Assembly (NCBI GenBank): GCA_963793305.1
Contig: CAWBZV010000012.1
Coordinates: 1-64,000, forward strand
Direction of reading: 5' to 3'
Length of the DNA: 64,000 bases
Origin: an uncultured Gemmatimonadales bacterium
Lineage (GTDB): Bacteria; Gemmatimonadota; Gemmatimonadetes; Gemmatimonadales; Gemmatimonadaceae
How positions within the stretch are numbered: position 1 is the stretch's first letter; each line of letters opens with the position of its first letter. This document shows, piece by piece, positions 22,547 through 40,884 of the stretch. Below the pieces are notes generated by a model. That model made no database searches. It saw nothing but the letters and a program-made list of their open reading frames with translations, and was not told where the DNA came from. Position numbers and translations under genes: made by a program.

Positions 22547-25267
22547 ATGTGGAATAGTCGGTGGGCGCGGCTTGTCGCGACCGGCGTAGTCGCCTACGCG
22601 GTCGCGTACTGGGGCTGGCTGGCGTTGGGGTGGCTCGCCCCCGCGCTCGGCGCAGCGTTCCGCGCGCGCATCGCCGGCATTGAGTTTCTGCCCGTCAACC
22701 TGGGACTCATCGTCGTCGCGGCATACGCGGCCCGACGCGCGCCGTCGCCGGAAGTGCGCCGCTGCATGACGTTGCTCGCGGTCGCCACCGTGAGCCCGTT
22801 CATCGGCAACGCGTTCTCGTCGTACGCCCACCACGTGCTCCACCGGAATCCCGACGTGATCTGGTGGGTGAACGCGCCGCTGCTCCTCTACTATCCGATC
22901 GCGACCGCCGCGCTCCTCTCGTTGCCGCGTGCGCCGCGCGCGCAGACCGAGCAGCGCAAGTTCTTGTTCGACGCGATCGCGGTCGTCGTGGGTGGCGGCC
23001 TCGCGATCTGGTATCTGGTTTGGGTTCGGACCGTTCAGACGGGCGTGCGCAGCCAGATCGAGACGTTCTACAACACCGCCTATCCGATCGGCGACATCGT
23101 CGTGATCGCTGGCATCGTGACGGCGCTGCTCCGACGTCCAGACAGCAGCCAGCGCCGTGCGTCGCAGTTGTTCCTGCTCGGCATGGCGATCTACATCCTC
23201 TCCGATCTCGCCGACCAGAATATCGTCGCGCAACTCGGCGAGTTCGTCGGCAGTTGGACTGACGCCGCCGCGATGCTCGCCTACGGGCTCATGGCATGGG
23301 GATGCGTGCGCTATGCCACCGATCCAGTGCCGCCGGCCGCCGTGGACGATCCCGCGGCGCTGACGCAGCCTTTCAGCCCGTTGCCGTACGCGTCGCTCGT
23401 GCTGTGCTACCTCTTGCTCCTGTTGGAAGCAAGCCGGCAGCCGGCAGGCGAGCGATGGCCGGTGCTGGCGGTCGGCGCCGTGCTGCTGACGCTCGTTGTT
23501 GTCCTGCGGCAGATCCAAGCCGTGCGAGAGAACGCCGTCCTGGTCGCGCAACGCGCGGCGCAGGTCAACGAGGCCCGTCTCCGCTCGCTGGTTCAGCACT
23601 CGTCCAACGTCATCTCGATCATCGCGCCGGATGGCACGGTGCTCTTCGTCAGTCCGTCGATCAAGCGCGTGCTCGGGTACGACGCCGCTGAGCTCATCGG
23701 CACCTCCCTGCTCAGCCTCCTTCACCCCGAGGACATTCCGCGCGGCCAAGGTATTCTCTCCCGGGGCGGGATGGCGGCCGGCGGCCCTGGTGAGCCAACC
23801 GAACCCGTCGAGTGGCGCGTGCGGCATCGCGATGGGCGCTGGTTGGATCTCGAGACCGTCGGCACCAATCTGCTGCACGATCCGGTCGTGCGCGGCATCG
23901 TCATCAATACGCGCAATGTCAGCGAGCGGCGTCTGCTGGAAGCCCAGCTCAAGCACCAGGCATTTCATGATCCGTTGACCGGTCTCGCGAATCGGTCACT
24001 GTTCATCGACCGCGTGACGCATTGCCTGGCCCGCGCCCGGCGATCACGCTCGACGGTGGCGGTGCTGTTCCTGGATCTCGACAATTTCAAGAATATCAAT
24101 GACAGCCTCGGACACGTGGCCGGCGATCGTTTGCTGGTAGCGGCCGCGGTACGGCTGGTCGGCTGCGTCAGAACGACCGACACGGCGGCGAGACTGGGTG
24201 GGGACGAGTTTGCCGTGCTGCTCGAAGACCCGAGTGGAGATCATCGCGCGCCCGCGGTCGCCGAGCGCATTACCGTGGCCATGGCGGCCCCGTTCGTTGT
24301 CGAGGGTAAAGAAGTATTCGTCTCGGCGAGCGTCGGCATCGCGACCGCCAATGCGGCGAACACGAACGGCGAGGCGGCCTCCGACCTGCTGCGCAATGCC
24401 GACATGGCGATGTACACCGCCAAGTCGCGCGGCAAAGCGCGCTACGAGCTGTTCGAGCAACGCATGCACCGCGAAGCGATGGAGCGCCTGGAAATAGAAG
24501 GCGATCTGCGGCGCGCGGTCGAACGCAGTGAGTTCGGGTTGCTCTATCAACCGATTGTCGATCTCAAGACCGGCGCGGTATCGGGCGTCGAATCGCTCCT
24601 CCGCTGGCACCACCCAATGCGCGGCACCGTGTATCCGTCGCAATTCGTCCCGCTCGCGGAAGAGACCGGGCTGATTGTGCCGCTGGGCACCTGGGTGCTC
24701 CGCGAAGCGTGCCGGCAGGCGCGAGTCTGGGATCCGAAACTCGATGGCACGTTCTCGCTCAGCGTCAACGTCTCGGGCCATCAATTACAGCATGCCGCCG
24801 TCATCGATATGGTCCGCTCGGCGCTGGCCGAGTTCGGGTGGCCGGCCGAGCGGCTCGTGTTGGAGATCACCGAGAGCATCTTGATGCAGAACGCCAACGT
24901 CATGCTGCAGCGCCTGGAAGGGCTCAAAGCACTGGGCGTTCGTCTCGCGATCAATGACTTCGGGACCGGCTACTCCTCGCTCTCGTACCTGCAGCGGTTC
25001 CCGATCGACATCTTGAAGATCGCCAAGCCGTTCGTCGACGGCGTCGGCTCCGCGCGCGCCGAGTCGGCCCTGGCCCGCGCGATCATCGCGCTCGGCGAGA
25101 CGCTGTGTCTGACGACGATCGCCGAGGGCATCGAGGTCCACGAACAACTCGTCGGGCTGCAGCAACTCGGCTGCGAGCTCGGGCAAGGGTACTACTTCGC
25201 GCAGCCGCTCTCGGGCGAGGCGCTGGGCGCGATGCTCTCCGAACGGCTAGCTGGTCAGTTTACGTAG
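22547..25267 (+). CDS. Membrane-anchored PAS-GGDEF-EAL diguanylate cyclase/phosphodiesterase
   Basis: Multi-TM N terminus, PAS (LLHPED, RHRDG), [44 protein letters not shown]. Confidence 0.93.
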
Positions 25268-27841
25268 CGCCGCCGCGGTGTTGCGGCGGGCCATGTGCCC
25301 GGCCCACAGATCGCCGCGCTTTGCCAGCCGCTCCGGAAATGTCTTGATCGTGAACATCCCCGGTGTCAGCGTATCCGTCAGCTCATCCCAGTCGAGCGGC
25401 GTCGATACGTGAGCGCCATCGACGGCTCTCACGGCATAGACACCCGCAACCGTCTTTCCCACGATATTCTGCAGGTAATCCACGTAGACCGAATCGGCCG
25501 GGCGCGCTTTGACGCTGCGCTCGATGGTGGTCTCCTTGGGATGCGCTTGAGACACGCGCGTCGCAATGAGCTGGGCCACGAGTCTGGCTGCCTCCTCCAA
25601 GGTGTTGCGCGGCAGCGGGACATATATATGAATGCCCGACGCGCCTGAGGTCTTCGGCGCTCCGTGTAATCCCATTGCGTCGAGCTCTTCTTTTACGAAT
25701 CTCGCTACCTGCACGACGCGTTGGAACGTCGCTTTCGGGCCCGGGTCCAGATCGATGACCGTATAGTCCGGCGTGTCGAGCGATTGCACGCGGGCCATCC
25801 ATGGATCGACCGACACGGCGCCGAGTTGGATGGTATACAGCAGAGTGGCGAGCGACCCACCGACAAACCGCCGCTCATCTTCGCCGAGCGTGTCTACGCG
25901 TACGCCATCCGGGACATCACTCGGCGCGTTTTGCTGATAGAACGGCTTGCCGTCGATCCCGTTGGGGAATCTTTTCAGCACCAGCGGCCGATCCGCCATA
26001 GTCGGCAGAATCGCATCGGCGATCTGGGCGTAGAATCTCAAGAGATCCCCTTTGGTGTACCCATCGCGGGGAAAGAAGACTTTTTTGAGATTTGATACGT
26101 CGAGCGTCTCGGAGCCGATGTGCAGCGTGCCATCGCCGCCGTCGTTTTCGATCTCTTGAAGCTCTTCAACGAGAGAACTGGCTTTCTTTTTTCGAGACAC
26201 GGGAGGCGCGTGTTGGATGCTCTCTTTCTCGCGAGTGACGAGCCGGGCCGGCTTATCATCGCGAACGCCAAGAAAGACGGGCTGCCGCAAGTATCCTTCG
26301 TCCGTCCATTGGATGAACTTGACCTCGACCACGATCTTGGGCTCAACCCAATGCGCGGGTTCGTTCGTCTTGGGAACGGACTCGAACGGTAACGTCGAGC
26401 GCGCGAGTGGCCCGAGGCGCTTGTGCATGTCCCGCAGCGCTTCGTCGGTGAAGCCTCCGCCCGCGTGCCCGGCGTAAATGAGCTTCGACCCTTCATAGTA
26501 TCCGACAATCAGCGCGCCGAGCGCGATGCGGGATTTGCGAGGGTCGGTCCACCCGCCGACGACGAACTCCTGCTGTTCCTCGAGCTTGAGTTTGAGCCAG
26601 TTGCGCGACCGGTGGCCGGCATCATAGCGCGCACTGGTCTTCTTCGCGATCACACCTTCCCAATGGTCCGCACGCGCGCGGGCCAACATGCCCGGGCCAT
26701 CCGGGCTCGTCTCGGCGAGGCGGATGGTGCTGTTCGTCGCGCCCTTGAGCCGCCGCTCCAGCGCTTGCCGGCGTTTCGTCCACGGCTCGTCGAGGAGCGA
26801 GACGTTGCCGTCCGCGAGCAGGTCGAACGCAATCAGCGCCGCCGGCTCTGATTTCTCGTGCTCGGCGATGTCCGAGTCGCCAATCAGGTGCATGCGATTC
26901 TGCAGACCCTGAAATCGACCAGGCGTGTCGCCGACGAGCGCCACGATCTCGCCGTCGAGCACGAACGGTGTGCGCGACTTGGCCGCGAGGTTGCGCACGG
27001 CCTCGGCGATCGCCGGGAATTGTCGCGCCTTGTCGATGCCGTTGCGCGAGACCAGAGCGACCTGTTTCGGCGTGCCGTAGGCGATCACGCGAATGCCATC
27101 GTATTTCGGCTCGAACGTCCAGCCGCCGCCGTCCGGCATGGACGTGCCGATCGTCGCCAGCATTGGTTCGATGCCAATCTCTTTTTTACTCGTTGCCGTC
27201 TTCTTCGGCATGGCCTTGCCCGCGGTGACTTTTTTCGGCGGGTCGCCGGCCGCGATCTCGTCCATCGTGCGGCCGGTGACGACCGACGTGGTGTACTCGG
27301 CCACCGGGTCAACGTCGGTCACGTAGTCATCGCGATGTTTGATCAGCAGCCATTGCGGCTTTTTCTCATTGCCCCGTTTTGTCCGTACCAGGGCGAACGA
27401 GCCATGCATTCGTTGGCCATGAAACGTGAAGGCCAGCTTCCCAGCGGCGAGCCCCGAGCGAATGGCCTCGGGCTCGTCCCCGTCATCGCCGACCTCGTCG
27501 GCCGTGTACGTGCCGCGATCCCAGATCATGACCGAACCGCCCCCGTACTCGCCCTTCGGGATCGTCCCCTCGAACGTGTTGTACTCCATGGGGTGGTCTT
27601 CGACCTCCATGGCCAGACGCTTGATGGTGGGGTCGAAGCTCGGCCCTTTCGGGACGGCCCAACTTTTCATGACGCCGTCGAGCTCCAGTCTCAAGTCGAA
27701 ATGCAACGCGGTCGCCGCGTGCTTTTGGATCACGAACTCGAGCTGGTGTTCTTTCGCCTCTGGCGTCACATTGCCGGCGGGCTCGGCGGTTTTTGAGAAG
27801 TCCCGCTTCCGTTGATACTCGCTCAGCGGAGTCGATGGCAT
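25247..27841 (-). CDS. ligD: NHEJ DNA ligase D (phosphoesterase-ligase-polymerase)
   Basis: [92 protein letters not shown]. Confidence 0.95.
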
Positions 27842-28441: not shown

Positions 28442-28475
28442 CGCTTGGTGCGCACGAGTGTATCTCGTGCCGCCC

Positions 28476-31021
28476 ATGCGCATCCCGTTGCTGCTCGTTC
28501 TCTGCGTTGCCCCGCTGTACGGACAGCGCAACATGATGGCCGATTCCATCGTGCCGACAGCAGCCGCGACGACGCTCTCGCAGTTGCTCACCGCGCGAGT
28601 CCCCGGTCTCCAGATCTTATCTCAGGATGGCAGTGCCGGGGCGGGACCAGTCGTCACAATTCGGGGATACTCGGCCGGGCCAACCGTGAGCCGGCCGCTC
28701 TTGTTTATAGATGGGATCCGGGTCGACGACGCCGGTGGTCTCGGCATCTCGATGCCATTGATCGCCTATCACCCGGCGACGGGACGATTCGATGACATTG
28801 ACCCGGCCGACATTGAGCGCATTGATGTGCTGTCGGGCGCGGCCGCCGCGAGTCTCTATGGTCCTGGCGCCGGTAACGGTGTCATTCTCGTCACTACGAG
28901 ACGCCACAGCCGGTCGTCGATCAGTGGCGAAGTGTCAGCCGAGGGAGGCGTCGCGACGACCTCGGTCGATGCGCCACAGAGTTACTTCTCGTGGGGACAT
29001 AGCGGAAACACCGTCGGCCAATGTCCGCTCGCTGCGCAAGCCGAGAAGTTGTGCACGCTCGACAGCCTGTCGCACTACAATCCGCTCCCCAGTAGCATCA
29101 TCCCCGCGTACACGCAGCGATACGGCGCCCTTGTCGGCGCGGACGTTGCCGGTCAGCAGATCTCGCTCAGCGGCCACTACGCGAACGATCCTGGCACCAT
29201 CGAGTTGAATCCGACAGAACGCGCGGCGTATCGGACCGATCTCGGCCTCGAGCCGTCGCCTGGACAACGCCGCCCGTCGGCGCTCGATCAAGGTCAGATC
29301 CGCGGCTCATTCGTATCTCCCATAGGCATCACGGCGTCGATCGGCTACATTGGAACCCACCAGCGCGATGGCGCCATCGACAGCTATCTGAGCGATGCCG
29401 CACTGGGGAGTGGGACGCGCGCGTTCAACGATGGGTGGGCCGGACCGACGTCACGCCCCGCATTCGATCTGGCCGATGTCTCGACTGATCACGCCCAACA
29501 TTCTGCTGTGGAGTCTGCAGGGCCTGTGGCAGCCACTCACACCGCTGTCGGTGCACGCGACGGTTGGCGCCGATGCGGTCTGGCGCACGACGGGCGATCG
29601 CGCCATTGGCCTTTCACCCAACGGCCAGGACACGGTCGCGGGTGTCGACGAACAGCACTTGACGCAGTACACGGTCGACCTGGGCGGCACCTGGAGCGCC
29701 GCGATCGCGCCGGCGCTTGCATCACGAACGTCATTCGGACTCCAGTACCTGGCCGCGAATGCGAGCGACTCGGCGCTGTCGACCGACGGCTCGAGCGGGT
29801 CGGTGGCGCTCGAGAACTCCACGCTGCATTTGGCCGATCTCACGCAAAGCGCCTATGTGAACGAGGCGCTGTCGATCGTCGACAAGGTAGCAGTGGGTGG
29901 CAGCGTCCGGTGGGATCACCACCGCCTGCAATCCGGGCATGTCTCGTCGACGGTGGCCGATCCGTCCGCAACCGTGAGTTGGGCCGTGCTCGGCACGACG
30001 TTCTGATCCGCGCATTCGGCTGCGGAGCGCTATCGGCCAGACCAGCACGCCGATTGGCACCGTGGAGCTCGCGGCCCTCGCGCTCCCGCTCCAATTCAAC
30101 AGCTTGCCGGTGCGACCCCCGACGCGCCAGCGAGAAGTCGAGGCGGGGATCGATGCGTCACTGCCCGGCGATCGCGTCTCGGCGAGTCTCACGACGTATG
30201 CCCGGCGGTCGGTGAACGCGATCCTGCCTTTCACGGTCCCGGACAATACGGGAGGTCTCGTCCGCCTGGCCGAGCAGGGAACGGTGAGCGACCGCGGCAT
30301 TGAATTCAGCACGACCGCGCGCATCATCGAGCGTCCCGTTCTCGCATGGGACGCGACCCTGACGGCCTTCGAGCACTGGAATAAAGTGCTGCGCATCCCA
30401 CAGGACGAGGAATGGTATGACGGCATGCTGCGGGTTGCCCAAGGCCATCCGATCTATGGCTTCTGGGCCGTGCCGTATACGTTCACGGATGCCAACCACA
30501 ACGGGGTGATCGAGCCGGACGAAATCAGGCCTGGAGCGCCCACGTACGTTGGATCGACGGTCCCGACGCACGAGGCATTGCTCGCCAGCACCGTGCATTT
30601 CTTCAAGCGCTCCGTGCACGTCAGCGTGCTCTTCGACTACCGCGGCGGGTATGTGCTGCCCGATCAGAACAGTCTGTATCAGGGCCTCGTATTCACCGCG
30701 CGCGCGCAGAACGTCGCCGGCTCCTCGCTCAGCGAGCAAGCGCTGGCGACAGCCGCTCTCACCGGTCCCGGCTGGCCACAGGGATTGGCCGACCGTGTCT
30801 CGGCCGTTCGCTGGCGCGAACTGTCCGTGACTGCAGAGCTCCCGGTTCCGCGCCCGATCTCCGTCACACTGGCTGTGCGCAATCTCGCCCTATGGACGAA
30901 ATACCCCGGCGATCCCGACATTGCTCTGGCCGAGCAGCCAGTGACCATCGCGTCGATCGCACCGACGCTGCAGCTGCCGCAACCTCGGACCGTATTGCTC
31001 CGCGTTACCGCCGGCTTCTAG
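28476..31021 (+). CDS. SusC-like TonB-dependent receptor, paralog 1 (+1 frameshifts near 29501 and 30001)
   Basis: Plug motifs PLLFIDGIRV, DIDPADIERIDVLSGAAAASLYG, NGVILVTT; barrel RQREVEAGID, DRGIE, LFDYRGG, RNLALWTKY; C-terminal F; three ORF pieces join to ~847 aa. Confidence 0.85.
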
Positions 31022-31057
31022 CGTCGTGTAGCATGCGCGACTATATCTCGTGGCGGC

Positions 31058-33584
31058 ATGCGACTGCGCTGGATTCTGATCGTGTTGGCCTGTCTCTGCG
31101 GCGCTTCAGCTCGGGCGCAGCAGAGGACGATATCCACGGATTCGACTGTGCTGACGGCGCCGGTCGGCACGCTGTCGGAGCTCCTCAACGGTCGCGTGCC
31201 GGGACTCGCCGTGTCGTCCAGCGATGGGAGCACCGGCGCGGGGTCCACCGTGTCCGTGCGCAGCGGCGGCCAGCCGTTGCTCGTGATCGACGGGGTGCGC
31301 GCCGACAACGATCCGGGTCTGCATAATCTGGCGGCGCCAGACCACCCGGCTCCCGCACGATTCGACGATCTCGACCCATCCGAGATCGCTACCATCCAAA
31401 TCCTTCCGGGCCCGTCCGCGACAGCGCTCTACGGACCTGATGCCGGCGACGGCGTCATCCTCGTCACCACCAAGCACGCCTCGTCAAAGGGCAGAGGTTT
31501 CCTCACGGCAGAAGGCGCGCAGGTCACGACGCCCATCCGCCTGCCCGACAACTATTACGCCAGGGGCCACCAGGGCGGCACCCCCGTACAGTGCTTGACG
31601 TACCTGCGCGCCGCGGGTCAGTGCACGCTCGACAGCGTGACGCATTTCAACCCGCTGCCCCCGACGCTCGAAACCGTCTACCAGGACCGCCTCGGCGCCT
31701 CCGTCGAGGGCACGTCGCCGACCCAGCGCCTGTGGCTCGGCGGACACTACGCCAATGATCCTGGCACGCTGCAGATGCCGGGACCGGATGCGTCGATCTA
31801 CACGAACGAGTACGGCTTCGGCCCGGCGCGGTCGCACACGCTGCCGAACCGCCAGCAGGAGGGCGACATCCGCGGATCCTTCGGCATCGATCTCGCGAAG
31901 ACCACCGATGCCGAGGTCACGCTCGGCTACGTCAGCCGATACCAGCGCGATCCGTCGCCCGCCACATTGCTCCAGAGTGCCGCCGCGGGACCTGGGTACG
32001 CCGGGGTGAACGACGGGTGGCAGGACTCCGTGAACCGGCCATGGAATGACTTCGCCAACGTCGCGCGTGAGAACGCACGCCACGTGAACGGCGGCGTCAC
32101 CATCAACTGGCAGCCCAAGCCGATCTGGGCGACGCACATCACGGGTGGCGTCGACGCGGTCGACCAGACGTTCGGCGACATGAGCATCCTGGCGCCATCA
32201 CTGGGGTCCGACAGCGCCATCACCTACGATCATACGCGTCTCACCCAGTACACGGCGGACGCCGGCGCGACCCTGACGGTGGGCGACTCGGTCGCCCGAT
32301 CGCAGACGACATTCGGGCTGCAGTATCTGGCCGAGCACTTCCGGGACTCGTCGTATCGGTTCGCCGGATTTCCCGGGACGTTCAACCAAGGCTTCGAGAA
32401 TATCGCGGCCGGCAGCCAGGATCGAAGCGCTTACGCGCGCGAGGTGGCGACGCTCGCCAATCATTTCGTGCTCGCCGGCGGCGCGCGGTACGACGACCAG
32501 CGGCTCCACGCGGCCCATCTCAACTCGTCGACACTCAACCCCTCGTTCGACGTCAACTGGGCCATCCTCGGTTCGGTGGCGGACCCTCGCCTTCGTATTC
32601 GCGGCGCGATGGGGCAGACCACGACGCTCCTCGACGCCCGGCAGCTTGGCTCGGTGGCTGCCCTGGATGTAGCGCAGCTCGGGTGTCTGCCGTTTACCGC
32701 GTGCTCGCCACCGCCGATCCATCCCGAGCGCCAACGCGAGTGGGAGACGGGGTTCGATGCATCACTCCCGCATGACCGGTGGACGATCGGGCTCTCGCTC
32801 TACTCGAAGCGTAGCATTGGTGTGCGTGTGCCCTTTGACACCATACTGGTTCCACAGGCCATCACATCCGATCGCGGCGTGGAGTTCGAAACCCGAGCCA
32901 GGCTGATCGATCGGCCGACGTTCGGCTGGAACTTCGCGTTCGACGCGTCGCAGAACACGGATAAGGTGCTTCGCATGAGCAGTCTCGCGAGCCATCTCTC
33001 TATCGGCGATCCGGTCGGCGCCGTGGTTGGCCATCCACTCGCGGGCGTGTGGCAAAACACGTACACGTACAGCGACGCCAATCACGACGGCGTGATCGAG
33101 CCGAGCGAGGTCCACGTCGACGGTACGACGACGCTCGGTCAGTATGTCGGGTCCGCTGTGCCAACGCATTCTCGCATCCGCATCGACGTTGATCGAGATG
33201 TTCCATCGCCAACTGCGGCTGGCGACGCTGTTCGACTATCGAGGGGGATACGTGCTTCCCGATCTCTCGCTCGAAGAGCACTACGGCTTGGGAGCGCGTG
33301 CGATCAATGCGCCTGGTGCATTGCTCGCCCAACAGGCGGCCATCCTCGCCATTAGCCAGGCCGGAGATCCACCAATGCAGCGCGTCTCAGCGCTGCGCTG
33401 GCGCGAGTTATCGGCGACGGTCGGGACGCCCGGGGTGCACACCGTGCAATTGACGCTCGCGGTCCGGAACCTCAGGCTCTGGACGCATTACCAGGGCGAT
33501 CCCGATTGGCTGCTCACGCCCGTGCAGGAGGAGCAATTGCCCGAGCCGAGGACGTGGCTGCTACGGCTGACCGCCGGGTTCTGA
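31058..33584 (+). CDS. SusC-like TonB-dependent receptor, paralog 2 (+1 frameshift near 33170)
   Basis: PLLVIDGVR, DLDPSEIATIQILPGPSATALYG, PERQREWETGFD, LFDYRGG, RNLRLWTHY, LRLTAGF; joins to ~841 aa. Confidence 0.87.
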
Positions 33585-35339
33585 CCTGAACACGATACGT
33601 GCCGCGCCTGGCGGCGCGTGCACGATGATTGTGTGCGGACTCGTGGTGCCCGCTGGCCGCACCGTGACACCGACGTCGGCGCTGACGTAGCTCCACGATG
33701 CCGGCACCGAGATCGGCAGTCCGTCGATGGCCTGCTGAGCGTTGAGGTGCAGCGTGATCGTTGGACCCTCGGCGGTCACGTCGCAGCCGACCGCGTCGCG
33801 CGCCGCCCACCAGCGACCGTAACCCGACACGGTACCAAACCAGGCGGTCGATCGGAGCGCCCCAACGAACCCCTGTTCGAATTTGAGCTTGTAGTCCGTG
33901 ACGTTCGGATGGATCAACACGACCATCTCGCCGCCGTAGCGGGACACCCGCCGCGCGACGTTGAGCGCGTCGTTGATCCGCGCGTCCATCCGAGGGAGCG
34001 CCTCGTCCTCGATAGAGACCGGAAACTCGAAGATGCCACTCTCGGCCTCGCCCGCCCGATCATCCGTGAGCGCGAACGGCAGATGCGTGAGCGACGCATT
34101 CGCGGTCGTCGATGAGCTGAAGCGATAGCCGACCGCGGCGAGCGCCTGGGGCAGTACGCGAGGCTCGGCGAGATAGCCGGGCCGGAATGCCGTGACGGTG
34201 TCGGGCGCGATCGATTCCAGGAGATATTTGCTGATCCGGAGCTCGCCGAGCACCGTTGCACCCGTTGTCGCCGTCGCGTTCTGCACGAACGGCCGATAGC
34301 CCGGAAAGCGCTCGTCACCCGTGCCGACCGGGAGGGTGGCAAATTGGCGCGAGTGGGCGACCGAGTGACTGGCGAGCTCCAGCCCGGCCATGGCGAGCTG
34401 TCGGAGCTTCGGCGACGCCGCATCATTGAAGAACACGTCATCGTTATAGTCGCGCACATACTTGGTCTGCACGAAGTACGTCGCCGGAATGCCCGCGGCG
34501 TGCTCGAAGTCGGCGTAGGCCTGCGAGTTGTCGACGGAGCGCAGGTAGTCCACGTCATGGGTGATCATCACCGCGAGCGGCTTGCCGTCGGGTACGGTGC
34601 CGAGCGTGACCGCGTGCGGCTCACCGTCGACATAGAGCTGTCGTATCACGCGGAGCCAGACGTCGATCGTCGGCTCGAATTGGTTATCGTAGGCTCGCGC
34701 GAGCGTCTCGTCATGACCGCCATAGCCGGTCTCGAGCAGCGCGCCGAGATCGACGCCGAGTGCATAGGCATGGCCATGGACCGTGATGGCCGCGGTGCCA
34801 TCGTCGAATGTCGCGAGCGGCGGTTCAATCGGTTTCGTGTACCCATACGCAGGTGGCGCTCGGAGCGTCGACTCGCGAGGATCATCGAGGCCGAAGCGCT
34901 TGATCGCACCTGGCGCAAAAGTGATCGCTGAGCGAGTGCGCGATGGGACGGCCTCGGCAAACCCGAACGTTTCGGCCAACCCACCACCCAGCACGTTGGT
35001 CGCGATCAAGGTCCCATGGTATTCGGTGAGCGCATGCAGTGCGTCGGCGGAGAGGGTACGGCCAGAGATAATGGGGTACACCAACACGACCCGATGCGTC
35101 AGGGCCGCGTGATAGTCACGCGTGATGACAAACGGGATGCCGATGGTACGGAGCCCGTGCGCGAGGGGCAGCCATGGGGCGGATGAGTCGGTGAGGAGCA
35201 CCGCCAACCGACTGGCGCCGCCAGTGGAGAACGATTGCCATTGGGCAGCCGTCGCATGCCGGATATGCGTCGCGTTCGCCGGCCCGGGACCAGGCAATAC
35301 CGCCGCAGCGGCGAGGCTCGCCGCGAAGAGTCCGCGCAT
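33561..35339 (-). CDS. Secreted polysaccharide deacetylase-like (NodB/CE4 fold) protein
   Basis: Signal peptide; ITHDVD, ATYFV, ELASHSVAH, FRPGYL, VLIHP motifs. Confidence 0.7.
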   Translation of the reverse strand: MRGLFAASLAAAAVLPGPGPANATHIRHATAAQWQSFSTGGASRLAVLLTDSSAPWLPLAHGLRTIGIPFVITRDYHAALTHRVVLVYPIISGRTLSADALHALTEYHGTLIATNVLGGGLAETFGFAEAVPSRTRSAITFAPGAIKRFGLDDPRESTLRAPPAYGYTKPIEPPLATFDDGTAAITVHGHAYALGVDLGALLETGYGGHDETLARAYDNQFEPTIDVWLRVIRQLYVDGEPHAVTLGTVPDGKPLAVMITHDVDYLRSVDNSQAYADFEHAAGIPATYFVQTKYVRDYNDDVFFNDAASPKLRQLAMAGLELASHSVAHSRQFATLPVGTGDERFPGYRPFVQNATATTGATVLGELRISKYLLESIAPDTVTAFRPGYLAEPRVLPQALAAVGYRFSSSTTANASLTHLPFALTDDRAGEAESGIFEFPVSIEDEALPRMDARINDALNVARRVSRYGGEMVVLIHPNVTDYKLKFEQGFVGALRSTAWFGTVSGYGRWWAARDAVGCDVTAEGPTITLHLNAQQAIDGLPISVPASWSYVSADVGVTVRPAGTTSPHTIIVHAPPGAARIVFRSEPGGQP

Positions 35340-35360
35340 ATGGTGAATGACGACTGACGC

Positions 35361-35783
35361 CTAGGCCGGTCGCGACCGGCCGTCGGCCGCGGCGCAGCGC
35401 TCGCGGACGATGGCCGACAATTCCTCGATATCGAACGGCTTGAGGAGCACCGGGCACCCAGTGGCTTGCAGCGTGGCGTGCGTCGAGGCCGCGATATCGC
35501 CCGTAATGAAGATCGTGCGCTCTTTGAGGTGCGGCTGCACACTCTGCGCGTACTCGAAGAGCAGGTCGCCGCGCACGTCCGGGATCCGATAGTCGAGGAT
35601 GAGGCAATCGATCTGCTTCTCGCCGAGCGTGCGTTCGGCGGCCTCGCCAGACGAAGCGACGTTGACGACGTAGCCGTCCCGCATCAGCAGCGTCGCGAAT
35701 GCCAGTCGGATCGACGGCTCATCGTCGACGAGCAGGATGCGCAGCCCGCCGCCGCGGCGCGGCTTATCCGCGTCCGGCAGCAC
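35361..35783 (-). CDS. Single-domain response regulator (CheY-like receiver)
   Basis: ILLVDDE, LILDYRIPD (phospho-Asp), FITG, LLKPF all intact; no output domain. Confidence 0.92.
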   Translation of the reverse strand: MLPDADKPRRGGGLRILLVDDEPSIRLAFATLLMRDGYVVNVASSGEAAERTLGEKQIDCLILDYRIPDVRGDLLFEYAQSVQPHLKERTIFITGDIAASTHATLQATGCPVLLKPFDIEELSAIVRERCAAADGRSRPA

Positions 35784-36600
35784 GGCGGAGAATGGTGAGG
35801 ACGGGTGGCGCGGCTGGCGCGCGGCCGACGACGAGCTTGGCGAGGGACTCGGCGACGCATTGATCGGGCGTGACGATCCGTCGCCACGCCGCGAACCGGC
35901 GGCCGCTCATCTGGCGCACGTGGGCGGCGAAGATGCGCGGGTCGGCGTATCCCAACCGCAGCGCGACGTTGGACATTGAGAGCGCGGGATTCTGGGCGTA
36001 CTGGTAGCCGCGGAGCACGCGCGCCGCGAGCACCAGCGTGCGGGCCGGGGCGAGTCCCAAGCGTTCCAGCCAGCGGTTGACGTTGCGCCGCGGCATCTCG
36101 GCCGCGACCGCGATGTCCGTCGCGCTGCGGAACCGCGTGGGCCGGCGAAACAACAACTCCACCGCGCCGACCAGCGCGGGCGGGGCGTCGCCGGCGACGA
36201 GCGCGACGCGGAGGGCGCCCAAGATGCGCTCCTCGATCCCGGTCGCGCGCAGCGTCTCCAGCCGATCGCGGAATCGCGTCGGCTCATCGTCGAAGCCGCG
36301 GAGGACGCAGTGGCGCACGCCGAGCTCGCCGAGCGAGAGCATCGCGCGCGTCGATTCGGCGGTGATGTTCGTGTACACCAGGACGGCGACGGCCGGGAAC
36401 CCAGCGCGGATCGCGCGCACCGCTTCGGTATCAGCTGATCCATCGACGCAGGGATCGACGACGGTCACCTCGACGGGTCTGGCCCGCAGCACGCCGGCCA
36501 GGGCCGGCCAACTCGACGCGGCCAGCACGGTGTGCTCGTCCCCGGCGACTATGCGGAGGTGGGACAACATGGCTGGAGTGAGGCGGGCGACTACGAGCAT
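35764..36600 (-). CDS. AraC-type HTH regulator with degenerate receiver-like N-terminal domain
   Basis: Start ~36600 (MLVVARL); N-term VVDP...VLVYT; C-term SATDIAVAAEMPRRNVNRWL and SMSNVALRLGYADPRIFAAHVRQMSG (AraC double HTH). Confidence 0.75.
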   Translation of the reverse strand: MLVVARLTPAMLSHLRIVAGDEHTVLAASSWPALAGVLRARPVEVTVVDPCVDGSADTEAVRAIRAGFPAVAVLVYTNITAESTRAMLSLGELGVRHCVLRGFDDEPTRFRDRLETLRATGIEERILGALRVALVAGDAPPALVGAVELLFRRPTRFRSATDIAVAAEMPRRNVNRWLERLGLAPARTLVLAARVLRGYQYAQNPALSMSNVALRLGYADPRIFAAHVRQMSGRRFAAWRRIVTPDQCVAESLAKLVVGRAPAAPPVLTILRRAAGRG

Positions 36601-36720
36601 GGGGCCCGCCGCCCGAATGCACCGTCCTTTGTCCCGAATCGCGATTGGCACGACAGATGGAGCAGCCGAGTATAGGTGCACCAAATACGGCTCAGCTGCC
36701 CAATCGCTTCCGAGGTGTAC

Positions 36721-36915
36721 ATGCTCGTTCGCTTCACACTCGCCGCCGCGCTCCTTGCTCTCGCCACTGCCTGCACCAGTCCGACCGCGCCGGTAGCGAA
36801 CTCGAACAGCGCAGTGCACGGCGGCATGTCTGGCGGTGGGGTAATGCCAGGATCCGGCGGCCACACGACCACGACAACACCGGACGACGGCGTGATGCCG
36901 GGGTCCGGCGGTTGA
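36721..36915 (+). CDS. 64-aa exported (lipo)peptide precursor with two GVMPGSGG repeats
   Basis: GAGGTG RBS before ATG 36721; hydrophobic signal ending in lipobox-like LATAC; GVMPGSGG at 36838-36861 and 36889-36912 with only synonymous differences. Confidence 0.8.
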   Translation: MLVRFTLAAALLALATACTSPTAPVANSNSAVHGGMSGGGVMPGSGGHTTTTTPDDGVMPGSGG

Positions 36916-36994
36916 ACGGCTAAATACCTCGCGGGCCGCTCCATGTCCGTCGGTTCGAGTACCTGATCTCCGTACTGCACGTGGCCGTTGCCGG

Positions 36995-38302
36995 CTAACC
37001 GCCGGCCGCGGCGAGTAGTCGCGCACCGTGTATTGCTTCAGCCACCCGGTTCACCCGAGCCGGCCGGGGGGACGCAATCGTGTGTCGTGGCGGCACCAAG
37101 GCGCGACCAGCGCTGAGAGCCGCCAATGCTGCCTGCGCGCGACGGAGAATATCGGCCAGTCCGTACCGTTGCGCGACGGTGACCGCCCGGTCGAACGCCG
37201 CCGCGGCGAGTGACGGCTGGCCGAACGCCAAGTGGCCCTGCCCCACGTAATAGTCGAATTCCGTCGCGAGTGACGGCGGGAGGCCGATGCCGCCCAACGC
37301 GCGCCGATGCCGCATGAAATCGAGCTCGCGCCGCTCGATCGTCGCGATCTCAATCATATTGATCGTGGCCGCCCACCGCGTGAACGGCTCTTGCGCGGTC
37401 TCGGCGAGCAACGCGTTGGCTTCGCGCGCCACGTCGGGATAGCCGGCCTGCAAGAGGAGTGTCGCCAGTGACACGAGGACGCGCTCGCGCTCGATCACAT
37501 CGGTCATGGCGGTCCACGCTTCATACGCGTAGGTGATCGCATCGTCCGGGTGGCCGAGCTGCGCAGCGACGAGGGAGAGGTCGTGAAACGCCATCGCGCG
37601 CACCTCGCCACAGTCGGTTCCGGTCGCGCCCGCAATGATCGCGGCGAGACGCTCATGCGCCACCGACAGATCGCCCCGTCCGACTGAGATCTTCGCTTCG
37701 CCGAGGTTCGCCCGCAACACGCTACGCTCATCACCTCGCGTCGCGGCGAGCTTGCCAGCGGCGCGGTACGCCTGCAGGGCGCGTTCGACGTCGCCCATCG
37801 TGCGGTAGCACACGCCGAGATAGATCGCCGTGGCGGTCGCGACCTCGCCATCCAGCGGCCCGATGACGCCATCGCCGACGTACGAATCCCAGACGATGGC
37901 GTAGACGTTGGCGGCGAGACCCCACGCCGAGCGGATGTGGAGCGCGCGGGCGTAGGCGAACAATGGCGCGACGAGGCGTGGGGGCTCGCCATCGTGCGCG
38001 GCAACGATCCGCGCGACGATCGAGCTCAGGAGCCGGCGCTCGGCGCCTTTCGTCGGCAGCTCCGCGATCACGCTTTGGACCGCGTCGACCTCATACTTGA
38101 AGGCCTTCTCTTGGGCACGCAGCGTGGCGAGCGAAGATTGCGCGCCATTGCCGTACTCGCTCCACGCATTGAGGAGGCGGAGCGCGACCAGGCCGGCACG
38201 GGCGGCACGCCATGCATTGCTGGCTTCGTCGGTCGTCGCCAGGACGTTGAAGAACGCGCGATGGCGCAGCGTCCCGTTTGTATCAATCATAGGTAGCACC
38301 AT
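36995..38302 (-). CDS. Tetratricopeptide-repeat (all-helical) protein
   Basis: TPR-like units (LGVCYRTMGDVERALQAYRAA; AFHDLSLVAAQLGHPDDAITYAYEA; VGQGHLAFGQPSLAAAAFDRA); no signal peptide or TM; start 38302 or 38290. Confidence 0.75.
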   Translation of the reverse strand: MVLPMIDTNGTLRHRAFFNVLATTDEASNAWRAARAGLVALRLLNAWSEYGNGAQSSLATLRAQEKAFKYEVDAVQSVIAELPTKGAERRLLSSIVARIVAAHDGEPPRLVAPLFAYARALHIRSAWGLAANVYAIVWDSYVGDGVIGPLDGEVATATAIYLGVCYRTMGDVERALQAYRAAGKLAATRGDERSVLRANLGEAKISVGRGDLSVAHERLAAIIAGATGTDCGEVRAMAFHDLSLVAAQLGHPDDAITYAYEAWTAMTDVIERERVLVSLATLLLQAGYPDVAREANALLAETAQEPFTRWAATINMIEIATIERRELDFMRHRRALGGIGLPPSLATEFDYYVGQGHLAFGQPSLAAAAFDRAVTVAQRYGLADILRRAQAALAALSAGRALVPPRHTIASPRPARVNRVAEAIHGARLLAAAGG

Positions 38303-38445
38303 CGGGATCCGGTTTCTCGGATGAAGGCTACGATACGGTAATGCGGCGGATTCTGCCATGCCGTGATGCCTCCCACAGCCGGAGCACACCGTCCCGCTTT
38401 GGGACAGTAGCGATCCCGGGCACCGTCGCCTATATCGTTGCCAGA

Positions 38446-38476
38446 TAAGGTGTTGCGTTTCGGCACGTCACATGCT
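38446..38476 (+). promoter_or_regulatory. Candidate sigma-54 promoter with IHF-like site for the ADOP permease
   Basis: CGGCACGTCACATGCT (38461-38476, GG-N10-GC) preceded by TAA-N4-TTG (38446-38455). Confidence 0.55.
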
Positions 38477-38493
38477 TGGAACTGAGCTCACCT

Positions 38494-40884
38494 GTGCGCG
38501 CCCTACTGAATGACGTACGCGTGGCGATTCGGATACTCGCCAGATCTTGGTCGTTTTCACTGACAGTTATAGCGACACTAACGCTAGGTATTGGCGCCAG
38601 TATAGCGACTTTCAGCGTCGTTAGTGGTGTTTTGTTGCACCCGCTCCCGTATGCTGGCGCCGACCGCCTGGTGGTCCTGACCGGCGGCAACCGGGTCTCG
38701 ATTCCTGATGGCATTGATTGGCGCGAGCGCGGCCGGTCGTTCTCTGACATTGCCTTGTTCTTGAGCTCCTGGGATTTTGACTTGAGCGCGCCGGCCGAGC
38801 GCATTAATGGCGCCGTCGTCGAACCACGGTTCTTCCATGTGATGGGACTCCATGCCGAACGAGGGCGCGAGCTCGAGGCCGCCGACAACGTTGCCGGTGG
38901 TCCGCGGGTGGTCGTGATCGCTCATCGGCTCTGGGTGCGACGGTTCAACGCTGACACCGCGGTCGTCGGCCGCGCGATTCTGTTGAGCGGGAAACCCGCG
39001 ACGATTGTTGGCGTGATGCCCGACGCCGCTGATGTCTTCGAGGCCGGGGTCGATCTCTGGGGGGTCGAAGCGATCGAGACCCCCTGGGCGCGTGACAATC
39101 GCGGCACAAACAACTTCGACGCCATCGCCCGCCTCGCTCCGGGCGTCACGCTCGATGGCGCGCGAAGGGAGATCAGCGCGATCTCGCGGGAACTCGCCGC
39201 GCAGTATCCGGAGAGCAACGAAGGCAAGATCGCCGGCGCCACGCGACTCATTGATGCATTGGTGGGGCCGGTGCGCGCGCCGCTCGTGCTGCTGCTGGGT
39301 GCGATCACCCTGGCCCTGCTCCTCGCCAGCGCGAATCTCGCCGGCCTCTTGCTGGCGCGCGCCGAGACGCGCCGGGCCGAAATCGCGCTCCGGCGGGCGC
39401 TCGGCGGCGGGCGCGCCGCGATCATCCGGCAGCTCATGACCGAGGGATTCGTACTCGTCTCGGTCGGCACCGCGCTCGGGCTCGTCCTCGCGGCCGCCGG
39501 TCGCAGCGCGCTTGTGAGCGCCGCGCCTGCATCATTGCCGCGCGTCGCGGAAATTGGCATCGACGCGCGCGTGATCGCGTTCTCCGTCGCCCTCGCCGTT
39601 CTCACGGGTGTGTTGTTCACGCTCGGTCCCGCGATCGCGCTCGTGCGGGCGTCGCCGGCCGAGAGTCTCTCCGCCCGCGGCCAACTCGCGCCGCATTCGC
39701 GTAACGTGTTGCGTGGGCTCGTCGTGGCCGAATTGGTCGCGGGACTCGTGCTCGTCACCGGCGCGGCGTTGCTCGTTCGTAGTGTCGTGAGCCTCGAGCA
39801 CGTCGACCTGGGATTCGATCCCGCGGGCGTCGTCACCGCTGACCTCGTGCTGCCCGAAGCCCGCTACGGGACCCGCGCACAGCAGACCGCGGCGTTCCGC
39901 GCGGTCGTGCAGGCCCTCGTGACATTACCGGGCGTGGATGCCGCGGGCTCCGTCATCGGGGCGCCGCTCTCGGCGACCGGTCACGTTGGTCATACACTCG
40001 CGGTCGAAGGTCGTCCGCCATTGCCGGCCGGCGCCGATGGCGCAGCGGATCGCCCGGTCGTCGGGAGTTATTTCCGCGCGCTCCGGATCCCGATCACGGC
40101 TGGGCGTGCGTTCACCGAAGCGGATCGCGAGGAGACACTCCCGGTCACCATCGTCAATCATGCGCTGGCCGAGAGACTCTGGCCGGGCGCGTCGCCGCTC
40201 GGCGCCCGCATCAAATGGATTCGCGTCGACGGCAACCCGGGATGGATGACGGTGATTGGCGTCGCGGGAGATGTCGCTGGCAGCGATCCCGCGACCCCGG
40301 ACGAACCGGCCGTGTACATGCCCTACGCACAGCGGACCGAGACCTGGCAGCGATTCGGCACGCTCGTCGTCCGTGCGCGCGATGCCCGACGCGGCGCCGC
40401 GGCGCTCCGCGAGGCGATCGCGCGCGTCGACGCCGATGTGCCGCTGGCTCATGTGGGCTCGATGCTCGACCACAGGGGCGCGACGATCGCGCAGCAGCGC
40501 TTCGACGCGATGGCGCTCGCCGTGTTCGCGCTCGGCGCTCTGGTGCTCGCGGTGCAAGGCGTGTACGGCACGGTCAGCTATCTCGTCGAGCACCGCCGCC
40601 GCGAATTTGGCGTGCGGGTAGCGGTCGGGGCGACCAAGGGCGACGTGGTGCGCCTCGTCCTTGGCGACGCCGCGCGCGTCGCGCTGGTCGGCTTGAGTGT
40701 AGGATCTCTCGTGGCGCTCCTGGCGACGCGACTCCTCTCCGGGCTCCTGTACGGCGTGGCGCCCGATGACTTCTCCACGCACGTCGCTGCCGCCATCACG
40801 CTCGCCGCCGCGGCACTCGGCGGCGCCTACTTCCCCGCCCGGCGGGCGGCTCGCGCCGACCCCGCGACATCCCTCCGTCAGTAG
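38494..40884 (+). CDS. Duplicated MacB/FtsX-type ABC permease (ADOP-like orphan permease)
   Basis: TLTLGIGASIATFSVV, PLPYAGADRLV, ANLAGLLLAR, EIALRRALG, LGFDP, RRREFGVRVAVGA, PARRAARADP; ~800 aa; probable GTG start 38494; no ATPase gene adjacent. Confidence 0.9.
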   Translation: MRALLNDVRVAIRILARSWSFSLTVIATLTLGIGASIATFSVVSGVLLHPLPYAGADRLVVLTGGNRVSIPDGIDWRERGRSFSDIALFLSSWDFDLSAPAERINGAVVEPRFFHVMGLHAERGRELEAADNVAGGPRVVVIAHRLWVRRFNADTAVVGRAILLSGKPATIVGVMPDAADVFEAGVDLWGVEAIETPWARDNRGTNNFDAIARLAPGVTLDGARREISAISRELAAQYPESNEGKIAGATRLIDALVGPVRAPLVLLLGAITLALLLASANLAGLLLARAETRRAEIALRRALGGGRAAIIRQLMTEGFVLVSVGTALGLVLAAAGRSALVSAAPASLPRVAEIGIDARVIAFSVALAVLTGVLFTLGPAIALVRASPAESLSARGQLAPHSRNVLRGLVVAELVAGLVLVTGAALLVRSVVSLEHVDLGFDPAGVVTADLVLPEARYGTRAQQTAAFRAVVQALVTLPGVDAAGSVIGAPLSATGHVGHTLAVEGRPPLPAGADGAADRPVVGSYFRALRIPITAGRAFTEADREETLPVTIVNHALAERLWPGASPLGARIKWIRVDGNPGWMTVIGVAGDVAGSDPATPDEPAVYMPYAQRTETWQRFGTLVVRARDARRGAAALREAIARVDADVPLAHVGSMLDHRGATIAQQRFDAMALAVFALGALVLAVQGVYGTVSYLVEHRRREFGVRVAVGATKGDVVRLVLGDAARVALVGLSVGSLVALLATRLLSGLLYGVAPDDFSTHVAAAITLAAAALGGAYFPARRAARADPATSLRQ

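Follow-up and report, generated by a model that had tools for sequence, protein, structure and literature searches.

Among the described peptide-signalling systems, PlcR-PapR exerts positive feedback on its peptide gene, the cCF10 pheromone of Enterococcus PrgX derives from the signal peptide of a lipoprotein, and in agr and comQXP conserved flanks enclose a contiguous hypervariable block that takes in the peptide and the receptor part facing the ligand. Receptors of the RRNPP kind begin with a three-helix bundle (Rap) or an HTH; their mature peptide, taken back up by an oligopeptide permease, docks on the concave TPR side and switches the N-terminal domain, and Rap proteins act on response regulators by a catalytic Gln or a ComA-binding surface. 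PMC10075063 and PMC9765709 present the reading of peptides by intracellular receptors as a trait of Firmicutes; there, the RRNPPA receptors are cytoplasmic proteins of 250–500 aa with 5–9 TPR-like repeats. Rap-Phr systems are documented to duplicate the autoinducer within its gene, to expand into paralogs and to include orphan receptors (PMC5199041, PMC9765709), and PMC5199041 also reports nprX duplications. For PrgX, the pheromone gene is usually not near the receptor gene (PMC9765709). As for export, the strict level of RRNPP_detector takes Sec/SPI signals, and LIPO signals are taken at its relaxed level only.

In this work, we have analysed a window of 64,000 nucleotides (the whole stretch of DNA), which holds a cassette that looks like peptide "dialect" signalling of a type known so far from Gram-positive bacteria. 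Our literature search has found no publication on this cassette. All the ORFs named in a first-pass annotation of this DNA are present where it placed them, and its guess of Gemmatimonadota agrees with the relatives, which carry the names Gemmatimonadaceae or Gemmatimonadota. The features are as follows.

33561..35339, minus strand: secreted polysaccharide-deacetylase-domain protein, co-directional, starting 21 bp past the lone receiver gene
35361..35783, minus strand: lone receiver (REC) with a complete phosphorylation signature, its gene sharing 20 nt with the end of the AraC gene
35764..36600, minus strand: AraC-type regulator, 278 aa, with an atypical receiver domain and a double HTH
36611..36639, minus strand: degenerate tandem direct repeat (ATTCGGG twice, 21-bp period), candidate AraC operator
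36721..36915, plus strand: 64-aa pre-pro-lipopeptide, ORF from ATG, with a lipobox signal and a repeat tail
36838..36861, plus strand: first 8-aa unit, GVMPGSGG, putative mature signal
36889..36912, plus strand: second, C-terminal 8-aa unit, GVMPGSGG
36800..37999, no strand: hypervariable specificity block (peptide tail and TPR C-terminal region), recombining as a unit
36995..38359, minus strand: TPR protein, 454 aa, candidate receptor (TPR_2 E 6.6e-8)
38476..40884, plus strand: ADOP duplicated permease (TIGR03434 E 9e-224)

The conserved core consists of the TPR protein, the peptide and the REC-AraC regulator, often with the lone REC, while the deacetylase and the ADOP permease are local neighbours. 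The latter two had been proposed as parts of the module, which is not borne out across related loci. Actually, the deacetylase adjoins the cassette in genomes G001 and G005, was not found in the retrieved stretches of G003, G002 and G008, and is present at 2 of 45 AraC-picked loci; it is a possible local output of the cassette. The permease belongs to a set of 59 paralogous ORFs in this genome and is not adjacent to the cassette in G005 and G002.

The peptide and TPR genes are convergent, with a stop-to-stop gap of 79 bp. If they form a pair, as the first-pass annotation suggested, TPR homologues should have neighbouring peptide ORFs and the linkage should persist in relatives, and both have been observed. 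A convergent lipo-peptide stands behind 76 (strict) or 83 (relaxed) of the 91 strong TPR loci, whereas among 2518 long, unrelated ORFs of this genome the same screen finds 28 with such a peptide, and AraC is present at 80 of the 91. Picking loci by AraC gives a lipo-peptide ahead of it in all 34 with room for the peptide gene, and the linkage is also found in 12/12 metagenomic loci. Among 137 order-level genomes, 73 have both the cassette-type AraC and a strong TPR, 51 have neither, and 13 are discordant. Overall, the linkage of TPR, peptide, AraC and REC is kept across two families of the order. The TPR family comprises 828 clusters at 50% identity; all 45 named relatives and most of the top Atlas clusters belong to Gemmatimonadota. 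As a rule, the cassette is chromosomal and present once, and no phage or viral match was found in the phage collections searched. This genome encodes 18 full-length TPR paralogs, of which 9 are paired with a convergent peptide gene and 8 have no peptide nearby; their peptide tails differ, and AraC is missing near 7 of the 10 peptide-bearing paralogs, as it is at locus L198.

The precursor was already noticed as exported, which holds with the correction that its signal is a lipobox, as called by a regex screen, instead of the Sec/SPI signal of the strict RRNPP_detector level. Signal peptide II covers residues 1–17 before the lipid-acceptor Cys18 (LATA/C18), with a basic n-region, a hydrophobic h-region and the lipobox Cys (MLVRF-TLAAALLA-LATA/C), so that lipidation is predicted. 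A T/S-P-T-A-P linker and then the tail with two GVMPGSGG units follow, the DNA of the two copies differing at synonymous positions. There is a GAGGT at 36712–36716 upstream of the ATG, and an RBS-like site is found in 98 of 118 family members. Against the close relative L141, codons 1–24 show 7 synonymous changes and 2 that are non-synonymous; together with the low convergent-lipobox null, this indicates that the ORF is more than chance.

Across the peptide family, the same screen finds the lipobox with Cys at +1, and residue +2 is mostly T/A/S. The tails are uncharged 7–9-mers rich in Gly/Ser/Asn/Thr, often in tandem copies, and repeated units are present in all 11 close metagenomic loci. A two-Cys loop occurs in 73 of 115 precursors, and the number of extra Cys is even in 114 of the 115, where a null expects about 52 odd ones. 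The unit size is concordant by two routes, with repeats of 7–9 aa and two-Cys loops mostly of 7–8 aa. The G-x-x-x-G-S-G motif put forward for the whole family does not extend to it, as a two-Cys loop, or a unit such as FExQGANN, forms the end of many members. Among the conserved neighbours of 86 loci there is no RiPP modifying enzyme or RRE, and neighbourhood clustering finds no protease, transporter or membrane partner conserved beside the cassette.

The TPR gene has a GGGAGG 7 nt upstream of its ATG, and its product is without an N-terminal hydrophobic stretch (cytoplasmic) and without an HTH by Pfam. The structure model (pLDDT 94.8) shows three long N-terminal helices and about 7 helix pairs, so that this 454-aa protein lies in the RRNPPA receptor range, as does the 64-aa precursor at 79 bp in the propeptide range (10–100 aa, −60 to 400 bp away); the host, on the other hand, is from Gemmatimonadota and not from Firmicutes or their mobile elements. 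The model matches Rap pLS20 with Z 23.1 (rmsd 8.0, 326 aligned, model 31–382 on chain 9–363), RapH with Z 22.5, NprR with Z 21.9 and RapF with Z 21.0. Its N-terminal helices (28–102) align to the N-termini of Rap pLS20, RapH and RapF from model 30–31 on chain 4–9, at rmsd 6–8, which is a resemblance at fold level. However, TPRs of LGN/Pins (GPSM2) are best or tied, at Z 22–24 (up to Z 24.2, rmsd 3.8). The Rap-like fold thus stands as an end-to-end match, while its specificity does not, since LGN-type TPRs tie. These eukaryotic scaffolds bind extended peptides in the groove, judging by PDB entry titles; most of their matches begin at model residue about 70–108 and miss the N-terminal bundle, and the likeness is one of fold only. 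The identity to Rap is 11–12%, and the best 60 of 131 PDB matches in a profile search contain generic TPRs and no Rap.

In the regulator, HTH_18 is found with E 1.3e-7 and 32.3 bits, just below the Pfam cut-off of 33.6. Its N-domain is a receiver fold that keeps D49 (71/73) and T77 (58/73) and lacks the acidic pair and Lys, departing from the canonical signature of phosphorylatable receivers. The lone REC carries D20-D21, D64, T94 and K115-P116, with D21 and D64 in 110/110 rows and K115-P116 in 92/92 ungapped rows, the rows including other receivers located in the retrieved loci. It stands behind 61 of 91 TPR loci, was not seen at C3:78k and C9:55k, which are paralogous cassettes, and is a frequent but optional partner.

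AraC/XylS proteins bind tandem half-sites spaced about two helical turns through a C-terminal double HTH. Correspondingly, HTH_18 is accompanied here by a direct repeat with a 21-bp period, the candidate operator, which is found before the peptide gene at 76 of 106 loci versus 0–6 in shuffles. Between clades, the repeat sequence changes together with the recognition helix of AraC. That of the window is weak (7/12 matches, negative score on the family matrix) and sits at the family-typical offset. Upstream of TPR genes, the repeat is found antisense in 18 of 117 cases versus 2 on the sense strand; it precedes the TPR gene as well in part of Gemmatimonadaceae, and none was found before the TPR gene of this window. 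This genome has only one further site, a weak one, and the extra sites of other genomes stand before unrelated genes.

We have also found the co-variation of peptide and TPR that the first-pass annotation looked for, both among close relatives and family-wide. Nine different 8-mer units, each in 2–4 copies, occur among close relatives with AraC 94–99.6% identical. In Mantel tests, the unit correlates with the TPR C-terminal region (TPR-C; rho 0.47, p about 3e-4) and not with the N-terminal 105 aa (TPR-N; rho −0.03, p 0.57), and the two trees conflict, each alignment rejecting the tree of the other (AU p 7e-5 and 1.5e-56). This indicates a recombining specificity block. At locus L253, AraC is 98.9% identical to that of the window, but TPR-C shares 68% identity with the window and 71% with G003; the AraC of G003 is 80% identical, and its unit is near-identical to that of L253 (GVGAGSSG / GIGAGSSG). 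The DNA identity to G001 is 61–81% inside the block versus 81–98%, mostly 86 or more, outside. As the breakpoints lie inside both genes, the signal peptide and the TPR N-terminus stay with the backbone, and the tail and TPR-C travel together. Family-wide, the partial rho is 0.33 for peptide and TPR-C given AraC and −0.02 for peptide and AraC given TPR-C, over loci that are not phylogenetically independent. The peptide tail lies physically next to the TPR 3' end, so that linkage accounts for part of the co-variation and is not fully separable from the RRNPP-like co-evolution seen here; units are also duplicated within the peptide gene, as in RRNPP systems.

The best explanation is that a diderm runs a peptide circuit resembling Rap-Phr, to which we give a probability of roughly 60% and in which we infer the processing, import and ligand recognition as well as the quorum-sensing role. 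Sec would export the precursor, which would receive its lipid at Cys18 and be retained in the envelope, where a periplasmic or surface protease may free the unit (here GVMPGSGG, two per precursor). The unit would reach neighbours, re-enter via an Opp/Dpp-type importer and bind the TPR groove allele-specifically. Without it, the conserved N-terminal bundle would keep REC-AraC inactive, as RapF does with ComA, or else act on the lone REC, as RapH does with Spo0F; binding would make the bundle let go of its partner. The freed AraC could then bind the tandem repeat and raise the peptide, the TPR in some lineages, and a few lineage-specific targets. Different alleles would be dialects, and the TPR paralogs without peptide possible eavesdroppers. 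To our knowledge, the passage of an 8-mer across two membranes is not established for this phylum, which counts against this explanation, as does the reduction that a disulfide loop would meet in the cytoplasm. Also weighing against it are the tie of the fold match with LGN/Pins, the lack of a protease or transporter conserved beside the cassette in the neighbourhood clustering, the weak operator of this window, and the unrelated genes behind the extra sites of other genomes.

The same wiring could be cell-autonomous, with the unit cut in the cell's own periplasm and re-imported, so that the circuit would serve timing or the surveillance of export, lipidation or envelope integrity. The lipid anchor with T/A/S at +2 would tether the precursor, an outer membrane would retain the peptide, and the mostly single-copy, chromosomal cassette without phage matches also agrees; yet a private monitor offers no obvious reason for nine co-existing alleles on near-identical backbones, for alleles common to diverged backbones, or for 18 paralogs with different tails, and we hold it unlikely. 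Alternatively, an intact surface or vesicle lipopeptide or a small toxin may serve kin discrimination or antagonism, with the TPR as cognate immunity protein or chaperone and AraC driving the pair. Allele swapping and divergent polymorphism are also known from toxin-immunity loci, the two-Cys loop fits an extracytoplasmic active form, and the repeat stands before both genes in some genomes. This is nevertheless distinctly unlikely, as such uncharged tandem tails are unlike a membrane-active toxin, neighbourhood clustering finds no conserved membrane partner, and the TPR N-terminal bundle follows the backbone and not the peptide, which suggests a constant downstream partner.

It could also be argued that the TPR regulates AraC while sensing something else, the lipoprotein being a mere AraC target and the co-variation a hitch-hiking on the recombining stretch. 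Both variable parts are adjacent DNA and 8 of the 18 paralogs have no nearby peptide. We consider this very unlikely, however, because the TPR-peptide pairs relocate without AraC and the breakpoints leave the rest of both genes with the backbone.

Compared with the described systems, the cassette shares with Rap-Phr an HTH-less candidate receptor made of an N-terminal helical bundle and a TPR superhelix, a neighbouring gene for a small exported precursor that carries the unit at its C-terminus, and probable targets with a receiver domain. Duplicated units, numerous paralogs, orphan receptors and allele-specific divergence are also known from Rap-Phr (PMC5199041, PMC9765709). It differs from Rap-Phr of Bacillus, its plasmids and phages by the diderm phylum, the SPII-type lipoprotein precursor, the frequent two-Cys loop, the tail-to-tail layout with one contiguous specificity block, and the putative target (REC-AraC, lone REC) encoded in the cassette itself. 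NprR-NprX and PlcR-PapR likewise join a TPR receptor to an adjacent propeptide, while DNA binding here would lie in a separate AraC-type protein. As in PrgX systems, a short peptide that a TPR-like receptor reads in the cytoplasm may stem from a lipoprotein. The pheromone of PrgX comes from the signal sequence, whereas here the signal is conserved and the variable unit is the C-terminal tail of a precursor with its own, adjacent gene. The hypervariable block inside conserved flanks recalls agr and comQXP, which, however, use membrane histidine kinases and modified peptides, in contrast to a soluble TPR without linked modifying enzyme.

More broadly, these cassettes may represent a widespread Gram-negative peptide-pheromone system, with tethered lipoprotein pro-pheromones, 7–9-residue linear or disulfide-looped signals and intracellular Rap-shaped TPR readers, though we put this at slightly less than an even chance. 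Under this pheromone reading, the tail-to-tail layout would let the peptide and the receptor pocket swap as one block and give strain-level dialects, and, with a similarly tentative standing, some soil lineages might run over a dozen channels, eavesdroppers included. If the cassette works as proposed, an abundant, barely cultured outer-membrane soil phylum shares the logic of these systems with a different precursor type, which would make one ask by what route a peptide signal passes two membranes and whether Rap-like receptors have two origins. The allele series found in nature (nine 8-mers, a few TPR alleles) would offer a cheap specificity matrix without culturing the organism. Family-5 peptide-binding proteins (SBP_bac_5) are encoded at two loci in this genome, without linkage to the cassette, and also in 11 of 14 control genomes.

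The window, contig C12 of a genome of 5.7 Mb (hereafter the own genome), contains every ORF named by the first-pass annotation. The cassette, i.e., a TPR gene, a convergent small lipopeptide gene and a REC-AraC regulator (AraC), with a lone receiver (lone REC), and its flanking genes are laid out as follows.

33561-35339, minus strand: deacetylase gene, flanking the cassette
36600-35764, minus strand: AraC
36611-36639: direct repeat, degenerate, 7 of 12 matches
36721-36915, plus strand: 64-aa peptide ORF, GAGGT five bases before its ATG
38359, minus strand: ATG that, judged from the sequence, is most likely the TPR start, with GGGAGG upstream (residue numbering, alignment and folding use the 434-aa form from ATG 38299)
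38476-40884, plus strand: ADOP permease gene, flanking the cassette

The cassette is real and conserved, and it looks undescribed. The phylum guessed previously, Gemmatimonadota, agrees with all 45 of the 45 named relatives, mostly Gemmatimonadaceae; the locus-search alignment reached Gemmatimonadota only, and the range figures apply within this phylum. In a survey scoring 8 candidates per genome, the TPR profile was found at E 1e-8 or better in 116 of 201 phylum genomes, namely in 34/38 of the own family, 63/96 of the next and 0/3 of the third family of the order, with weak matches outside the order. The TPR family comprises 828 clusters at 50% identity (E 1e-30 or better). Atlas rows that come from Bacteroidota and Acidobacteriota point to possible occurrences beyond the phylum. 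The 140 fetched loci yielded 91 distinct strong TPR ORFs with sufficient sequence past the stop codon, and a convergent small lipobox ORF follows 76 of them by the strict definition and 83 by the relaxed one, versus 28 of 2518 other long ORFs of the own genome. The peptide ORFs anticipated beside TPR homologues are thus present. Beyond the peptide, AraC is seen at 80/91 and the lone REC at 61/91 of these loci, the latter count being depressed by short loci. The 34 weak TPR matches show a peptide in 16 cases (strict and relaxed alike), AraC in 13 and the lone REC in 3. The unpublished genome G012 contributes one row to alignment A1 and to the linkage counts, and no claim is based on it alone.

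When loci are picked by AraC instead, 11 of 45 end too near a contig edge, and the remaining 34 all carry the peptide, one of them broken by an assembly gap. Among 137 order-level genomes, 73 have both a cassette-type AraC and a strong TPR, neither is found in 51, and 13 are discordant, with thresholds chosen after the scores were seen and with non-independent kin genomes. Contigs from three soil metatranscriptome sets (word shares 0.06-0.07) contain relatives' pieces of 85-99% identity over AraC, peptide and TPR, and one of them joins the peptide start to the TPR 3' part across 342 unlike letters; the runs were chosen using the window sequence, and contigs are uninformative on transcription, strand and level. 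A literature search by title and start of abstract, with most subscription journals outside its coverage, found no paper on the cassette.

The signal of the 64-aa peptide is closed by a lipobox, LATA|C18, and the ORF encodes GVMPGSGG twice, the two copies using synonymously different codons. Comparison of its first 24 codons with those of the near relative L141 shows 7 synonymous changes and 2 non-synonymous ones. Readings of the gene as a shadow ORF and as a RiPP precursor were both rejected. Across 115 distinct mature peptides, the first residues follow a conserved pattern, C-[TAS]-x-x-T-[AG]-P; the tails vary and are rich in the residues G, S, N and T. Two extra Cys residues occur in 73 of these peptides, none in 41 and one in a single case, while chance would give odd counts in ~52. 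The Cys loops are mostly of 7-8 residues. A terminal unit (in the window, the repeated 8-mer closing the tail) is exactly repeated in eight peptides under a strict test, with up to about five copies. Both the looped and the repeated tail forms suggest an active unit of 7-9 residues.

DNA identity between the window and the relative G001 is 61-81% inside 36800-37999 and 81-98% outside, mostly 86% or more, and this block spans the peptide tail and the TPR from residue ~100 onward. AraC is 98.6% and TPR 79% identical in this pair. A metagenome scan gave 12 loci, all with the peptide, and 11 of them are close (AraC 94-99.6%, partly on incomplete lengths). Together with the genomes they display nine units in 2-4 copies each: GVMPGSGG, GVLTGSGG, GTT[VI]GSSG, GVVIGTGG, GVTVGGGT, GVTTGGGT, GVSVGGGT, GVGLGGST and GVGAGSSG. 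The last belongs to locus L253, whose AraC is 98.9% identical to that of the window; its C-terminal TPR region (TPR-C) is 71% identical to that of the relative G003 versus 68% to that of the window, and its unit is nearly the same as the G003 unit, GIGAGSSG.

Co-variation of peptide and TPR, which the first-pass annotation had proposed as a check, is borne out. After four duplicates and G002 (7-aa unit) were dropped, unit similarity tracks TPR-C similarity (rho 0.47 with 9 alleles and 0.56 with 11; p ~3e-4, the lowest value that 3000 permutations allow) but not that of the 105-aa N-terminal region, TPR-N (rho -0.03, p 0.57). Between TPR-N and TPR-C, the tree of either region is rejected by the alignment of the opposite one (AU p 7e-5 and 1.5e-56), the TPR-N tree being weakly supported. 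In a second case, from the other family, L066 and L073 share 97% identity in AraC, 88% in TPR-N and 55% in TPR-C, and their tails differ. Over 71 cassettes, the partial correlation of peptide with TPR-C given AraC is 0.33, versus -0.02 the other way. Physical adjacency by itself would yield part of this co-variation. That breakpoints lie within both genes, and that very divergent alleles persist, suggests that the peptide-TPR pair is under selection. The window contributes an unusually clean natural allele series, by which the ligand-receptor claim becomes directly testable.

The TPR model (pLDDT 94.8) consists of three long helices at the N-terminus plus about seven helix pairs. Since its alignment with Rap proteins runs nearly from one terminus to the other (pLS20 Rap, Z 23.1, 326 aligned at rmsd 8.0; RapH, Z 22.5; RapF, 21.0; also NprR, 21.9), the modelled architecture is Rap-like at fold level. 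The earlier likening to Rap therefore stands for the overall architecture but not as a specific match, because LGN scores Z 24.2 over 292 aligned positions starting at residue 108 (rmsd 3.8). AimR, PlcR and Rgg are not among the fold matches listed, the best 60 of 131 matches in a PDB profile search are generic TPRs, and phage records, viral contigs and PHROGs gave no match. When TPR (alignment A2) and the mature peptide of 47 aa were modelled as a complex, the score was 0.02 and the mark 0.32, controls not being folded, and we make no call from it.

Of the 18 full-length TPR paralogs in the own genome, 9 are accompanied by a convergent peptide, 1 has a co-directional peptide upstream and 8 lack any nearby, and each paralog peptide has a tail of its own. 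A quick 58-row tree places the window TPR among its genus orthologues (99) and separates it from the remaining 17 paralogs (99). Several paralogs, mostly peptide-less, bear an N-terminal Cys/His-rich module, C-x-G-x2-3-H-x-W...DA-x-x-CCNG (own-genome C2:445987, C3:1532345, C5:651897, C5:1498940 and C10:147828; database proteins P0094, P0097, P0102, P0116, P0122 and P0129), which is possibly a metal-binding domain; in the scanned database proteins it matches no Pfam entry. Another database protein, P0065 (644 aa), carries an ECF-type sigma-70 region 2/4 domain N-terminal to a full family TPR, which may represent another kind of output or an artefact of read-through.

The N-domain of the regulator folds as a receiver in which D49 and T77 are kept and the acidic pair and Lys are absent, and the lone REC has the full phosphorylation signature. 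No kinase is found among the conserved cassette neighbours. Between peptide and AraC (100-250 bp), a lag-21 direct repeat occurs in 76 of 106 cassettes versus 0-6 in shuffles (21 cassettes at lag 20 and 12 at lag 22), usually some 80 bases ahead of the peptide start. From clade to clade, its sequence changes along with the AraC recognition helix. Sites are rare across the genome (14 versus 3 in the control over 5 genomes; 16 versus 1 in a second count), and one repeat pattern has sites in just 2/5 genomes. The same geometry is seen before the TPR gene in 4/5 genomes and in 18/117 cassettes (sense control 2), though none was found before the window's TPR, and also before an AraC-less peptide-TPR pair (L198). 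Extra sites number 0-4 per genome, with a single weak one in the own genome, and precede unrelated genes of no evident common function: lipoproteins, an SH3 protein, a trypsin-like protease, a pilin-like protein, histidine kinases, a LuxR regulator, DyP peroxidase, GmrSD and UvrD. The sole recurring non-cassette target seen is the same histidine-kinase-like gene behind a tandem repeat in L235 and L239 (G084 and G076, one genus). A sigma-70 scan of 35200-38600 gave no promoter, no terminator was found between the window's convergent genes, and the family alignment offers only a suggestion of -10/-35 elements. In the second family of the order (L047-L100), many cassettes have the end of the second repeat right at the AraC start or no more than a few bases away, which suggests that AraC is autorepressed or has a leaderless message; the TPR gene in this family is often preceded by a pilin-like gene.

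Building on the observed linkage, allele structure, folds and repeat, we propose that the precursor would be lipidated, the unit cleaved off the lipopeptide, and the unit would cross the envelope and then be imported; family-5 binding proteins, whose genes are common, number two in the own genome. TPR would recognise the unit, and recognition may release REC-AraC or act on the lone REC, with feedback on the peptide promoter. Likenesses to agr, comQXP, cCF10 and PlcR feedback are apparent. We consider the receptor-ligand wiring of TPR and peptide probable, and cell-cell communication by the cassette our preferred reading, at a probability of about 0.6. That the cassette is a private timer or envelope monitor seems unlikely, kin antagonism with immunity is rather improbable, and hitch-hiking is the least probable of these readings.

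As a communication system, the cassette would work like Rap-Phr (compared through parts of PMC10075063, PMC9765709 and PMC5199041), but unlike RRNPP systems it lacks an SPI signal in the strict sense, and its host is not one of the Firmicutes. For these reasons, and with homology to RRNPP no more than possible, we do not file it as an RRNPP member. 'Gemmatimonad' has 0 occurrences in the main-text portion of PMC9765709.

The deacetylase and the ADOP permease, previously taken as module parts, are not kept beside the cassettes of all relatives. The former adjoins the cassette in G001 and G005, and was rejected as a core part since it was not found in the stretches fetched from G003, G002 and G008; a separate adjacency count does not inform on the deacetylase, most loci being too short. 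The latter was rejected as it is non-adjacent in G005 and G002 and has 59 paralogous ORFs in the own genome. Most Gemmatimonadaceae cassettes lie near Rho-like and BamA-like genes (names read from sequence). In the own genome this usual site (C4:145070, within C4:141277-150709) shows an AraC paralog only, TPR, peptide and REC not being seen there, so the window's copy sits elsewhere.

In the own genome, a stretch at C2:167918-175916 (minus strand) has a distant REC-AraC paralog ahead of coaE-like, lipoate-ligase-like and opp/dpp-like genes. This order recurs in 2 of 14 other fetched stretches (L212 and L213, where no binding-protein gene was matched), so we do not count it as support. At C5:654599-657104 (plus strand), PqqD-like, lasso-B2-like and asparagine-synthetase-like ORFs, as read from sequence, come after the AraC paralog in a TPR-AraC pair that has no peptide, and are possibly a RiPP output of that paralog. 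In the window, two tandem SusC-like TonB-dependent receptor genes (28458-33584, plus strand; Plug domain in the second) are split by frameshifts, and several TPR paralogs elsewhere in the own genome are split likewise, which may reflect assembly indels. Two ORFs named by eye, LigD-like DNA ligase/polymerase (25247-27841, minus strand) and membrane PAS-GGDEF-EAL-like (22547-25267, plus strand), are unrelated to the cassette.
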